DNA of 64,000 nucleotides, taken from assembly GCA_964016885.1 (NCBI GenBank), contig OZ024751.1:49848001-49912000 (forward strand), written 5' to 3'. This document shows, piece by piece, positions 4,680 through 60,945 of the stretch (positions are counted from its first letter, which is position 1; the number at the start of each line of letters is the position of its first letter). This DNA is from Eledone cirrhosa (Eukaryota). The notes under the pieces were generated by a model that saw only the letters and a list, made by a program, of their open reading frames with translations, was not told the DNA's origin and searched no databases. Made by a program: the position numbers and the translations under genes.

Positions 4680-4879
4680 AGGAAAATGTTTGACCCCGAC
4701 GGCAGAGCTCAAGCCGTTTCGACGTCTATTTCTGAACTGAGGCCAGAAATAGCCGTCGAAACGGCTTCAGCTCTGCCCTCAGGGTCAAACATTTTCCTAT
4801 TATCCATTCTACTACCCTAAGTATTGAGTACTCTGGTGCCTTATGGTCCATCTGGTTCCTTACCACTCTTCCTTCGTTA
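4680..4879 (+). mobile_element. Fold-back island, family X, with the 3' half of a hammerhead
   Basis: Arms 4680-4734 and 4744-4799, then a tail with attgagtactct. Homologous to 60746-60945 and 33229-33356. Confidence 0.8.
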
Positions 4880-4957
4880 TATATATATATATATATATAT
4901 ATATATATATATATATATATATATATATATATATATATATATATATATATATATATA

Positions 4958-5090
4958 AGTCTATCCTAGGTTCAACGAGGGGTAACCACAGTAAGTAAGG
5001 TACTCAATACATAGGTGAGTATAAATATTCAATATAGAAAAGGCTTCTATGAAACAGTTCTAATCCCGTAGAAGACATTTCTATATTAAA
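4958..5090 (-). mobile_element. Family Y island, opposite orientation
   Basis: Shares ggtaaccacagtaagtaaggtactcaatac with the reverse complement of about 22708-22737. Carries GAAAC agttctaatccc GTA gaag in the inverted segment. Confidence 0.7.
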
Positions 5091-6627
5091 TATATATATA
5101 TACATACACACACACACACACACACACACACACACACACACACACACATATATATATATATATATATATATATATATATAGATATATATATATATAAAGT
5201 TGTGAGAAAGATACATACGAAACATATTTATATATACATGTGTGTATGTATGAGGAAATTATTTGTAGTTGGATTCTTATGAATATCCATTTTAATGCCT
5301 GAAAGTATAGTAAGTATAGAAAGCAAGCTTAGCAGATAAAAACTACTGTACGGTAATAAAAGTTATGAAGTATAACAAGGAGAACAAATCTAAAATCTGT
5401 TAAAACATCTTACTTTGAAAAATACTAATAAACTTTAGACCCAAAGAAATATATATATATGTGTGTGTGTGTGTGTGTGTGTGTGTGTGTGTATATATAT
5501 ATAATATCCATACATATTTGTGTAGGTAAATTTAAAGTTTCTCTTAATACTTTAAAAACAAAAAAAAGACGCCATAATTATAGATTTGAAATTCTTTCTC
5601 CTCTTAAATTTCAATAAATTTGTTCGAAGACTACATCAAACATTACTTATAACTTATAACTAAACATATGTTAGATAATACATGGTGTGCTTGAACTTTA
5701 ATCCTCTGATATAATCTGGGGACTATTACGATTATGGAATAAGAATAATACTTTAAATAATAGTAATAATAAAAATAATAATTATCTTTATTATTATTAC
5801 TATAAATATTGAGATAAAATAAAGATTTCTTCAAATATTTCAATAAATACTTTTTTTTCAATTATGTATATATATATATATATATATATATATATATATA
5901 TATATGATAAGACTTAATCTTTAAAGAAGCATATATTTAAGTTTTCTGAGAAATTATCTTTGGATATGTTATATACATATATTTGCGTGTGTATGTGTGT
6001 GTGTGTGCGTATGTGTGTGTGTTTGTTTGTACGGGCGTACATATGTTTCTTAGTACATGAGATTGTACTTGTTTGTAGAAATATATATGTGTATATATAA
6101 GTGCATAAGGGTTTATGGGAAAATAGAAAGAAACATATGTTGCACAATAATTACATTTTATATGCAATTGTATTTATGTATGCATAATATACAGACTTTT
6201 AAACCTACTGCCGTATGAAGTATTATACAGTTGAATCGAACTAACGCAAACATAGAGACTCAGACATGGCCGTCCGGATATCAACCCCCAGCATTGTCTG
6301 GTGAAGATTTGTTACTTCACATGTACATTCAAATTAATAATTCTTTGCACACAATGTCAACTCTGGTTGCATTGCCTTAAATTGTTATAAAAGACTTGAA
6401 CCAGGATGGTCTATAAGAGTAATCCCCCTTCCTTAACAACCGCCAAAACTTTTCGGTCCGGAAATTGCATAAAAACTACACACAGACATACAGACGCAAA
6501 CATATACATGCATTCATACATACCTATATATATATATATATATATATATATATATATATATATATATATATATATATATATATATGGTTCGTATATTATC
6601 TATTAAATATTTCTGTATAATCAAGGA

Positions 6628-6724
6628 ATCCCTCTGATGAAGGAATTTCTTCCAATATTGGTTGGTTATGTTTATTGGGATAATTAATATTACGTTGTTA
6701 ATTTCAGAAACTGCCGTAAGAGAT
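6628..6724 (+). ncRNA. Hammerhead motif with enlarged stem II
   Basis: atccct CTGATGA (about 66 nt) GAAAC tgcc GTA agagat. Confidence 0.65.
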
Positions 6725-7628
6725 ATGATACAAGCAAAACCTTCTAATATTAGTTTGTCTAGCTTATATTCCCCCTATGGATGTTTTGCCATTAGATAAA
6801 CAATGTTTTAGGTGTGTATATATATATGTATATATATATATATATATATATATATTATATATATATATATATATATATATATATATATATATATATATAT
6901 ATATATATGTATATATGAGTGTATATATATATATATGTATGTATATATGTGTGGGTGTATATATACATATGTGTGTGTATGTATATATGTGTGTGTGTGT
7001 ATATATATATGTGTATATATGTGTGTATATATATATATATATATATATATATATATATATATATATATATTTTTTTTTTTAATATAAGGAACTTGTTCTT
7101 TGTTTTTATTCATTGTTTTTATTAATTTATATATATATATATATATATATATAAAGAGAGAGAGAATGAAAGAGCAAAAGAGAGACAGAGAGAGGAGAGA
7201 GACAGAGAGACAGATAGACAAAGAGAGAGAGAGAGAGAGTGAGAGAGAGAGAGAGAGAGAGAGAGAGAGAGAGAGAGAGAGAGAGATAGAGAGAGAGAGA
7301 GAGAGAGAGAGCTGTAATATTACGCTCCACTAATGCTTTGAACACATTTTTTCCTGGAGTCGTAAACAACGATGTAGTGAAATCTGCAAAGATATACTTT
7401 GCGAAATACTTTGCAATACTTACACACACTCACACATACACACACACACATATATGTATGGGGGGGGGGGGGTCTTTGTGTGTGTGAGTGCGTGTGTTTG
7501 TTTGTCTAGTGTCTATGTGTATGTCTGTGTGTGTATGTATATATATATATATATTCATATAGATTTATGCGTATGTATACATACATAAATACACACATAT
7601 TTTCTCTGGTGCCAGCCACAAACCAATT

Positions 7629-7929
7629 GCAGCAGATAAATTGTTCACAACACACACACGCACACACACACACACACAGACACACACATATATATATATA
7701 TATATATATATATATATATATATATATATGTATCTATGTATGTATGTGTGTGTGTGTGTGTATGTGTGTGTGTGTGTGTGTGTTGTGTGTGTGTGTGTGT
7801 GTGTGTGTGTGTGTGTGTGTGTGTGTGTGTGTGTGAATGTGTGTGTGAGTGTGTGTGGGTGTGCTTGTGTGTCTGTGTGTGTGTGTGCGTGTGCGTGTGT
7901 GTGTGTATTGTGAACAATTTATCTGCTGC
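7629..7929. repeat. Inverted repeat enclosing (CA)n(TA)n(TG)n
   Basis: gcagcagataaattgttcacaa at about 7629-7650 and ttgtgaacaatttatctgctgc at about 7908-7929. Confidence 0.8.
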
Positions 7930-8662
7930 AAGTATGAATACGTATATGTATATGTATATGTATATGTATATATATATTATAGGTATATATACATATACAT
8001 ATAATATATATATATATACATATATATACATATACATATATATACATATATATATATATATATATATATATATATATATATATATATATATATATATATA
8101 TATATATATATATATATATATATATATATTTATGTATATATATATATATATATGACTGTAGGTAAAGTACCGTCTGCCACGGAGTAAACAACCTTACACT
8201 TAATAAACATATAGTACACACTGACTAAACCGAAGTTCATTGTATTGATTTTGTTATATGTCAAACAAAGTTCAGAAAACATTACTACATGTCTAACATA
8301 GGCGTCACAAGTATGATATATTGAAAGATAGGACATGCGATCGAATGGCAGTAATACTTGGTGTTTTTGTTTGTTTGGGGTTTGTATGTGTTTATGTGTA
8401 TGTGTCCATGTGTATATATATGTGTATGTGTGTAGTGGTAGGGTACAAGTTTGTGTGGCAAATGTTTTTCGGATGTATGTTTAATGAACAAATAATATGA
8501 CACATTGAAGTAAATATGAAGGATTTCATAAAGAGATGTAAACCCACCCTCGATTGAATGTCGGAATAGAATAGTAGCTACTACCTTGTGATGGGCGAGA
8601 GAGAAGAGAGAAGGAGTGATATATATATATATATATATATATATATATATATATATATTTAT

Positions 8663-58863: not shown

Positions 58864-58901
58864 ACTTTACCGGTTTCACAAGTTTCATGATTTTCAAAAG
58901 T
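58864..58901 (-). ncRNA. Variant hammerhead, U3-A8 core
   Basis: Minus strand: actt TTGAAAA tcatgaaacttgt GAAAC CG GTA aagt. Confidence 0.6.
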
Positions 58902-59165
58902 TACGAGAGATAGAAAGAGATGTGGCTAAAAGGACTTTGACCATAGGTCAGCTGTACTATCAGCTCTAACATAGAATTAAGAAAAAAACACTAATAACCC
59001 TCTATCAATATAAACTATTTAATGAGAATTTAAACACATCTATAAATATAAAAACACATACATACATAAGTACATACATACATAATTACATACATACATA
59101 CATACATACATACATACATACATACATACATACATACATACATACATACATACATACATACATAC

Positions 59166-59775
59166 ATGGTGGCTGCCAACTCGTTTTCGAGTACGGCTAC
59201 TACTTTATATCCATGTAGGAGAACCCCTACCTATGCGCTGAACGAGTGTGACTTTTTAGTCCAGCCAGCGACTTGAAAACTCTGGTACAAACACTACACT
59301 TGTGACAATTATTGACACATAATGCTGGGCCCATGGTACCATGTGACGACAAGTGCAGAGAGATCTCCAGATATAAAGCAATGCTTGTGCCGTGAAGCTT
59401 TTATAGTGAGCAAAGGCACTGCACAAAGCCAGTGCCACTCTCTTAACCAAGATGATATTTACCAAAAAGAAGGACAAGTCAACATCATTGGATACCATCA
59501 GGGTTGCAGGTGTTATATCAGAGTTTTCCTTCTCCTAGAATTCTGCCTTGACAAAGGCTAAGGGGTCATCTCTCCCGGTGATTTTGGATGGCCATTGACT
59601 CTTAAGAGCTCCTTTGCCCTTTGACAGGTTTTGTTTTTAGTCCTGCAGGATGTCCAAAGTCACCCTCCTCACCAAGAAACCTTGGTGGGGTTGCCAGTTT
59701 AGGCGCCAACGACCCGACCATGAGACAGGTTGTACTGGGATACATATTACCAGTAGCACCAACTGGTGACCTGAC
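59166..59775 (-). mobile_element. Non-autonomous RTE-like retroposon, longest copy
   Basis: Flanked by (TACA)n and homologous to 10586-11150. Confidence 0.7.
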
Positions 59776-59931
59776 ATACATACATACATACATACATACA
59801 TACATACATACATACATACATACATACATACATACATACATGCACGCATTCATACATACATACATACATACATACATACATACATACATACATACATACA
59901 TACATACATACATACATACATACATATTTTC

Positions 59932-60334
59932 ATAGTGGCTGCCAACTCGTTTTCGAGTACGGCCACTACTTTATATCCATGTAGGAGAACCCCTACCGAT
60001 GCGCTGAATGAGTGTGACTTTTTAATCCAGCCAGCGACTTGAAAACTCTGGTACAAACACTACACTTGTGACAATTACTGACACATAGTGCTGGTCCCAT
60101 GGTACCATGTGATGACAAGTGCAGAGAGATCTCCAGATATAAAGCAATGCCTGTGCCGTGAAGCTTTTATAGTGAGCAAAGGCACTGCACAAAGCCAGTC
60201 CCACTCTCTTAACCAAGATAATATTTACCAAAAAGAAGAACAAGTCAACATCATTGGATACCATCAGGGTTGCAGGTGTTATATCAGAGTTTTCCTTCTC
60301 ATAGAATTCTGCCTTGACAAAGGCTAAGGGGTCA
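59932..60334 (-). mobile_element. 5'-truncated copy of the same retroposon
   Basis: Matches 59166-59568, with (TACA)n on both sides. Confidence 0.7.
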
Positions 60335-60745
60335 TACATACATACATACATACATACATACATACATACATACATACATACATACATACATACATACATA
60401 CATATATGACAGAGAGGAGGAGATAGAATTAGAGAGAATGAGAGTGGTGGATGGTAATGTTGTCTGTTAAATATATCACACATATACATGTCTGGAACTG
60501 TTTAGGAAAATAAACGTAATTATTTCCTCCTACAGACGATGATAGATACAGTCTTTGTTGGTTATTAAACTCTAGAGGCGATTGTTTCTATGATTTTGGC
60601 AATTCCTGTGTGTAGGAGCTTCCACTTTCCTTACCTCCATCTCCTACAAATAATTAAGTCGTACGAAGGAAATAAAAGATGATAGATTGTGCAAAAATAT
60701 AATTAAGAAGCTAATAGACTGATATATATATATATATATATATAT

Positions 60746-60945
60746 AGGAAAGAGTAGGACCCCGACGGCTGAGCTCAAGCCGTTTCGACGGCTAATTCTG
60801 GACTCCAATCCAGAATTAGCCGTCGAAACGGCTTGAGCTCAGCCGTCGGGGTCCTACTCGTTCCTATTACCCACTATACTACCCTAAGTATTGAGTACTT
60901 TGGTGCGTTATGGTCCACCTGGTTCCTTACCACATTTCCTTCGTT
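60746..60945 (+). mobile_element. Fold-back island, family X
   Basis: Near-perfect 56-bp arms. Sense arm GAAAC ggct-tgagctc-agcc GTC ggggtcc is hammerhead stem III plus cleavage triplet. (TA)n on both sides. Confidence 0.85.

Follow-up and report, generated by a model that had tools for sequence, protein, structure and literature searches.

Scattered over 64,000 nucleotides of Eledone cirrhosa DNA (contig OZ024751.1, positions 49,848,001 to 49,912,000; this whole stretch is called the window below) are short insertions which, judging from their sequence, are remnants of Penelope-like retroelements (PLEs) and likely belong to the Hydra clade of this class. In these remnants the motif GAGYRCY makes up the 3' side of a stem-loop with a bulge (in order, RCTC, the upper stem, 1-2 nt bulged out on the 3' side, and GAGY followed by RCY), whose base lies 4-5 nt from the end of the inverted arm in 7/7 measured copies of four families, as against 19-25 nt from the arm end to GAG. 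On balance, we think that this hairpin is probably an RNA binding site which positions the PLE reverse transcriptase (RT), so that copying starts 4-5 nt upstream of its base. A first-pass annotation of the same DNA had pointed to the motif and, among the roles it proposed, RT binding is the one we favour. The tails, palindromes and hammerhead ribozymes of PLEs are already known; the hairpin is a real cis element of this known retroelement class, and apparently an undescribed one.

The origin of PLE tails and inverted pseudo-long terminal repeats (pLTRs) is an open question. According to the available text on an in vitro system (PMC11167929), the protein of a Poseidon-clade element nicks both strands of AT-rich DNA and the cDNA starts at two sites within the RNA, which bracket the tail; no signal setting these starts came with it. 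A hairpin conserved across families, as well as in coral and sea-cucumber elements, and lying 4-5 nt from a cDNA start would offer a precise target for mutation. Additionally, an RNA helix that places the template would be of wider interest, since PLE RTs are the sister group of telomerase, and the hairpin would serve as a marker for classing the abundant remnants that contain no protein.

The hairpin and the element boundary

The element copies, grouped in families designated by letters, and their hairpins are given below (window positions and strand).

4679..4877, plus: family A copy 1; inverted arm, direct arm containing a hammerhead 3' half, tail; flanked on either side by (TA)n
4806..4832, plus: its hairpin and RCY; lower 5' strand ATTC with a U-G pair; arm ends 5 nt upstream
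4958..5086, minus: family B copy 2; tail on the minus strand, direct copy starting at most 2 nt from the hammerhead cut site
4999..5020, minus: its hairpin and RCY; lower stem intact, 1/3 pairs in the upper stem; arm ends 4 nt upstream
8659..8920, minus: family K; hammerhead-like motif (8910-8861), then the hairpin and a tail running into (AT)n; lacks an inverted arm
8735..8797, minus: its hairpin; upper stem of 5 bp, bulge TT, long apical part (lower strands 52 nt apart)
22610..22762, plus: family B copy 1, of high copy number; inverted copy with full hammerhead, direct copy starting at the cut site, tail
22632..22670, minus: type I hammerhead from its core to the cut site, within the inverted half of family B copy 1; a conserved block in reads
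22671-22675: joint of family B copy 1; the two copies are joined through 5 nt of stem I sequence
22698..22719, plus: hairpin and RCY of family B copy 1; arm ends 5 nt upstream
22859..23008, minus: family F copy 1; short palindrome and tail, hairpin 22932-22910 lacking the 3' bulge; a TA run makes the arm end ambiguous
23097..23248, minus: family F copy 2, a duplicate of copy 1 (99% identical); hairpin 23172-23150
28767..28791, minus: isolated hairpin and RCY (L), similar to a subfamily of B found in reads; (TA)n absent where the tail should end
29004..29157, plus: family E; palindrome and tail, hairpin 29098-29120 (bulge of 1 nt), arm end 4 nt before it; hammerhead not recognised
30123..30648, plus: family C copy 1; arms of ~210 bp, tail, hairpin 30566-30587, arm ends 5 nt upstream
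30460-30509, plus, and 30223-30174, minus: minimal hammerheads of family C copy 1, one per arm
33229..33355, plus: family A copy 3; inverted arm running into a direct copy whose truncation falls within the hairpin; the bulge and GAGTACT (33304) are retained
41670..42120, plus: family C copy 2; hairpin 42036-42058, arm ends 5 nt upstream
43721..43900, plus: family I; by eye, a hammerhead-like motif whose core is altered (cut after 43796); hairpin 43831-43854, tail
50408..50606, plus: family J, with (AT)n on either side; hairpin 50505-50534 (upper stem of 5 bp, bulge TC), hammerhead not recognised
60744..60944, plus: family A copy 2; hairpin 60873-60899 with one lower-stem mismatch, arm ends 5 nt upstream

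In MAFFT alignments the 5' strands fell out of register, so pairing was scored from coordinates. Over 12 copies, 80/84 stem positions pair (77 Watson-Crick, 3 G-U, 0 A-C, 4 other). The first three upper pairs vary by family, being TAC/GTA in A, L and F, TGC/GTA in B, CAA/TTG in C, GTC/GAC in E, TGG/CTA in J and CGT/ACG in K; in the upper stems of eight family representatives 23/24 positions pair and, with registers set by eye (bulge of 1 in E, none in F), 12 of 40320 strand swaps reach 23/24. In family I a G-C pair replaces A-T in the lower stem. After the stem a purine always comes first, paired or not, followed by CY, and this invariance suggests sequence-specific reading.

The strict short form of the hairpin (exact RCTC, upper stem of 3 or more bp, 1-2 nt bulge, within 20 nt) was found at 6 of the 31 GAGYRCY strand-sites, as against 0.0045 expected per site when the upstream DNA is random; for a hairpin of long range the chance rate is 18% of sites. 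The predicted pair probability of the lower stem exceeds 0.7 at most positions in 8/12 copies. A metagenome scan for ACTC-N-GAGTRCY-N-(TA)7 (25/64 parts, 114 loci) gave an upstream hammerhead in 0/105 distinct matches and, with a 3-bp upper stem, a 2-nt bulge in 4/101 and a bulge of 1-3 nt in 13/101 distinct loops; these matches are read as chance and serve as a null only. Rfam scans returned no family for the hairpin (microRNA-like hairpin noise stayed below gathering scores) and no hammerhead among the matches listed, which in one scan were the best 150 of 511.

From the end of the inverted arm to the hairpin base the distances are 5, 5, 5, 4, 5, 5 and 4 nt (families A, A, B, B, C, C and E), and in the same copies the distances to GAG are 25, 25, 20, 19, 20, 21 and 20 nt, the spread of the latter being due to differences in loop length. 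Tails end 44-84 nt past GAG, depending on the family. The first-pass annotation had called the distance from arm end to GAG near-constant, at 20-27 nt (21-27 nt by its coordinates); taken from the last pairing base of the arm, its six sites give 25, 20, 20, 20, 21 and 25 nt. Its view of a cis signal that sets the element boundary is borne out inasmuch as the motif is a conserved PLE cis signal tied to the boundary; a double-stranded DNA palindrome is not the form that we favour. The boundary is constant with respect to the hairpin base, not to GAG, which speaks against a palindrome from which a cut is measured off as at an I-TevI site. Moreover, the eighth base of the palindrome is variable (C or T), GAGY pairs with the upstream RCTC, and the upper-stem pairs are kept through sequence change.

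The same evidence bears on the possibility that the hairpin sequence is a DNA element (double-stranded, cruciform or single-stranded cDNA) for the GIY-YIG endonuclease, which would set the boundary a constant distance away. Sequence conservation of the lower stem and RCY fits such an element, and the Penelope endonuclease of D. virilis needed the tail to recognise and cleave plasmids (PMC11167929, in the text available), which is why we leave this explanation a small probability. Upper-stem covariation and a one-sided bulge, on the other hand, require a folded single strand, and the stems hold sense-strand G-U pairs as against no A-C (3 vs 0, small numbers). Since the arm ends adjoin the target (TA)n, no cut inside the element is needed.

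Each measured arm end also shares 1-4 T/A bases with the flanking (TA)n (7/7), as expected if the nicked (TA)n end simply paired with the nearest unpaired UA and so set the start passively, the hairpin being an RNA binding or packaging signal or merely a stable fold. Also in favour of this, the motif-less family at 9585 has a different hairpin a few bases past its arm end (folding z -3.7). We nevertheless regard passive positioning as unlikely: the 4-5 nt offset is found in four families with different spacers, the copy at 22610 shares one base only, and RCY is kept after the stem even where it is unable to pair.

Occurrence of the motif

All six YGAGTRCY sites of the first-pass annotation are present where it had placed them, and so are its further sites at 8734, 33304, 43848 (GAGCACTC), 50528 and 22916-22910 (minus strand). 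Its statement that unrelated families share the motif is right as to several families; the six sites represent four families and not six, since 4800 and 60866 belong to one family (86% identical over 183 nt) and 30560 and 42030 to another (90% identical over 239 nt). At 8734 the motif is there, in an element oriented along the minus strand, with the hammerhead at 8910-8861, the motif at 8741 and (TA)n after it. Three copies, at 5005, 23156 and 28773 (all minus strand), had been missed.

Bare GAGTRCY is about 2-fold enriched in unmasked DNA (24 vs 11.9 expected, with 1/200 shuffles as high), and GAGYRCY has 31 strand-sites vs 19.2 expected. When the upstream RCTC partner is included, GAGTRCY occurs 12 times vs 1.1 expected (0/200 shuffles), for a pattern picked after looking. 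The 31 strand-sites correspond to 24 distinct loci, 14 inside elements and 10 outside (2459, 4023, 19143, 23387, 25030, 32980, 34546, 42808, 48345 and 56607, all with no element context, as is a relaxed match at 23574). Five of the eight palindrome-plus-tail families carry the motif (A, B, C, E and F); its chance of falling in a 21-nt interval is 0.0045 per family, which gives ~1e-10 for 5/8, uncorrected for motif choice.

Chance and shared ancestry with no function could draw on the modest enrichment of the bare 7-mer, on the 10/24 loci outside elements and on the choice of pattern after looking. Given the enrichment of the extended pattern, the swap test and the recurrence in coral and sea-cucumber consensi, we find this explanation hardly credible and largely refuted. 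A coding origin of the motif (Glu-Tyr/Cys or Leu-Ser-Thr/Ala) was rejected on inspection, third positions being fixed in one frame and stops occurring in the other.

Palindromic or tailed stretches with no motif lie at 9585-9990, 16800-17130, 19380-19635, 36130-36756 and 21017-21254, with hammerhead-like cores in 9585 and 36130/16800; the palindromes at 9585 (9584 in the first-pass annotation) and 36130 had already been noted there as lacking it. These families possibly represent other PLE clades.

Penelope-like anatomy of the elements

As described in the available text of PMC8557442, PMC3846280 and PMC4209133, PLE insertions lie in (TA)n and combine a truncated copy in inverted orientation with a hammerhead and a tail at one end. 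The window elements sit in (TA)n, have an inverted 5'-truncated copy adjoining the 5' end in families A, B, C, E and F, and bear a tail on one end only (64-95 nt where there is a palindrome). Scanning with descriptors turned up type I hammerhead ribozymes in families B and C, as well as in five other places; by eye, hammerheads were seen in families A (3' half), I and K, and neither scans nor inspection recognised one in E, F, J and L. In every family that has one (A, B, C, I and K), the ribozyme is oriented towards the tail and its cut site precedes GAG by 42-119 nt. The window copies are too short to reach the open reading frame (ORF) with its telomerase-like RT and GIY-YIG endonuclease.

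A DNA transposon of the miniature inverted-repeat or terminal-inverted-repeat kind was considered and rejected, as the inverted repeat stops 64-95 nt short of one end and hammerheads are present. Non-LTR retrozymes (PMC7229834 and bioRxiv 10.64898/2026.07.22.740005, in the text available) are alike in being short, non-coding and PLE-related, with a type I hammerhead; they are head-to-tail tandem repeats, whereas the window copies are dispersed remnants in (TA)n, single or head-to-head, and they too were rejected.

More hammerhead motifs with no downstream hairpin lie at 4535-4579 (plus), 2528-2490 (minus), 18612-18547 (minus) and 43607-43535 (minus). Those at 4535, 2528 and 18612 reach (TA)n 54-193 nt past the cut site, as expected of tail-less copies.

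Sequencing reads of family B

Restriction-site-associated DNA sequencing gave ~6080 reads per run (X21, X22) on the family B element, against a depth of 1-2 on unique flank. Two blocks are conserved in them, the hammerhead, and the hairpin with the tail. The hammerhead cut site is found in sense upstream of the tail in 423 and 332 reads of the two runs, and these loose-end reads, which come from other copies, settle the sense order of ribozyme and tail; the reads confirm the order ribozyme, hairpin, tail, (TA)n for this family. The 3' ends fall at 22749-22761, followed by TA-rich DNA. A subfamily (453 and 437 reads) has other flanks and keeps ACTC, and the two lower-stem variants among those listed (22698 A>G and 22699 C>T) give sense-strand G-U pairs. 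The family B variants and loose ends described here are those listed, with 35 variant rows and 275 loose-end rows beyond them. The layout is shared by a second organism (X5), on few contigs.

Both family B direct copies start at the hammerhead cut site or at most 2 nt from it (22671-22675 and 5040-5050), and reads and contigs repeatedly show strand-switch joints that have 22673 on one side. These are hints that the cleaved RNA serves as template in vivo, unlike the in vitro PAc result.

Related elements in other animals

Six Hydra-clade consensi (PMC8557442, File S7) were examined by eye as an outside test. A full hairpin stands at the termini of 3/6, and variants in two more. Hydra-2_Amil (upper stem TACAC/GTGTA, bulge TT) and Hydra-2_Ajap (TGCT/AGCA, bulge TA) have one with GAGCACT at the 3' end, where the cut site lies 65 nt and 57 nt, respectively, before GAG (by eye); Hydra-1_Ajap has two with GAGCACT at the 5' end (TGTCC/GGACA with TA, CTGAC/GTCAG with TC). 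Hydra-1_Crog has two variants, one with a lower-stem C-G in place of T-A, and Hydra-1_Amil a one-mismatch variant. The hairpin thus recurs in coral and sea-cucumber PLE consensi. A text search of the supplement with six bulge-plus-motif 8-mers gave 19 matches (line breaks can hide others), of which 4 are Hydra termini and the other 15 apparently lie in coding sequence of other clades; the supplement text of Frangieh et al. 2024 (7,325 characters) gave no text match.

In the available text of Craig et al. 2021 (PMC8557442), (TA)n is the insertion target of Hydra elements, which have canonical type I hammerheads near the 3' end, 5'-truncated inverted copies and a tail; the window elements are alike in all of these and in the bulged hairpin, which the published consensi show with GAGCACT and which that text does not mention. 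Additionally, the hammerhead of family B resembles that of several Hydra entries in its core and in an ACAG/CTGT stem III. The clade is defined by protein motifs (RWK, DKT, a CxCX5C linker and a C-terminal endonuclease domain with no CCHH), whereas the window elements are known from non-coding parts.

With PAc/Poseidon (Frangieh et al. 2024, PMC11167929, in the text available) the window elements share an AT-rich target and an upstream hammerhead, and would also share two RT starts bracketing the tail and nicks in both target strands. The PAc/Poseidon tail differs in being 30-40 nt long and inside the ORF start, with initiation in an AC-rich stem-loop and no conserved binding motif defined there; the window tails are longer, non-coding and provided with a hairpin common to families and phyla. 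In the PLE and retrozyme literature searched, including the available text of PMC7229834, PMC13282606 and bioRxiv 10.64898/2026.07.22.740005, we found no description of the hairpin, which subscription papers, Repbase reports, figures or supplements may hold.

The consensi also give some ground for seeing in the hairpin a promoter, initiator or 5'-untranslated translation element of the next tandem unit, placed near the boundary only because the tail is the 5' start of an element. Hydra-1_Ajap begins 2 nt before its first hairpin and two copies precede the start codon, a Y-R step is kept inside the motif, and TATA and initiator-like sequences have been noted in pLTRs (PMC3846280, in the text available). 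A core promoter needs neither a covarying bulged stem nor a 4-5 nt offset to cDNA ends, and we judge this role improbable.

A further reading, which we put forward only tentatively, is that the Hydra-clade 5' leader holds two tandem hairpins, one per subunit of a dimeric protein, with cDNA starting 4-6 nt upstream of each; the tail length would then equal the hairpin spacing, and both tail length and head-to-head palindromes would be explained. It is drawn from two published consensi, Hydra-1_Ajap, with hairpins ~60 nt apart, and Hydra-1_Crog, with one hairpin in the 3' tail and a second-like one 6 nt past the 5' start. The sole window copy that runs past the expected tail end (28773, minus strand) has only a degenerate candidate for the second hairpin.

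Proposed role of the hairpin

If the hairpin is indeed a binding site for the PLE protein, nicked (TA)n ends would prime two cDNAs, the first starting just 5' of the hairpin and giving the tail-less inverted arm, the second starting 44-84 nt 3' of GAG and giving the tailed direct copy. The two 5'-truncated cDNAs would then join head to head, often through hammerhead helices. The arm end would correspond to the upstream RT start and the tail end to the downstream one, and the hairpin between both starts would be the handle for the protein, holding the primer-template 4-5 nt 5' of its base. An RT-bound bulged RNA stem-loop that fixes where synthesis begins is known from hepatitis B virus (epsilon), in which synthesis is protein-primed and the bulge is the template. 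The likeness is a functional analogy only, and no homology is claimed; in the window elements, priming would come from nicked target DNA just 5' of the helix.

Several observations weigh against this role or against the Hydra-clade assignment. Protein binding and priming are functions that we infer from sequence, and the contrast between hairpin base and GAG is mostly one of family A against B, C and E, with F ambiguous (TA run). The swap test is optimistic because of its by-eye registers. The nearly invariant lower stem contributes little covariation, and it is poorly populated in the predicted folds of A1, A2 and B1 (0.0-0.14; 0.49 in B2); whole-tail folding z-scores are mostly weak. A minority of family B reads lose the third pair of the upper stem (22704 C>A, 22708 G>A), and the read layout left out 22582-22621, which contains the left arm end and with it the putative first start site. 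The motif was not found in the tails of 3/8 palindrome-plus-tail families (9585, 36130 and 21017), nor was a clear hairpin copy found by eye in Hydra-1_Obim. Finally, the tails (64-95 nt) are longer than the published 30-40 nt, and the 64-kb window has no PLE ORF, a six-frame search for PLE protein motifs finding none, so that the clade assignment is based on non-coding features.

Other repeats in the window

The window is AT-rich animal DNA (32% GC) with ~19.6 kb of simple repeat. A high-copy, tRNA-like repeat of ~190 nt resembling a short interspersed element has more than 10 copies in it; we take its core to be like that of MetaSINE or octopus elements of this kind. The copies are:

3633-3877
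13589-13796
20324-20508
20752-20938
21291-21471
35633-35789
41151-41298
43102-43295
46910-47088
53032-53221
63010-63121

A frameshifted remnant of a long interspersed element (LINE) occupies 54438-56657, with RVT_1 and weak zf-RVT matches; its RT is LINE-type by Pfam and ~50% identical to RTs that include one from Hydractinia. Two related repeats, 23511-23870 and 24050-24520, have ends presumably like those of non-autonomous Helitron/Helentron elements. Inverted repeats face each other over a (CTT)n/(CAA)n array at 38344-38978 and over (TA)n at 51602-51717, each forming a tail-to-tail pair of short elements. A repeat of 400-600 nt is present in three copies, 89-97% identical (10591-11142, 59174-59770 and 59940-60329), and at 19096-19332 a 48-bp palindrome lies inside a 31-bp perfect inverted repeat, with a one-sided extension of 155 nt to (TA)n.

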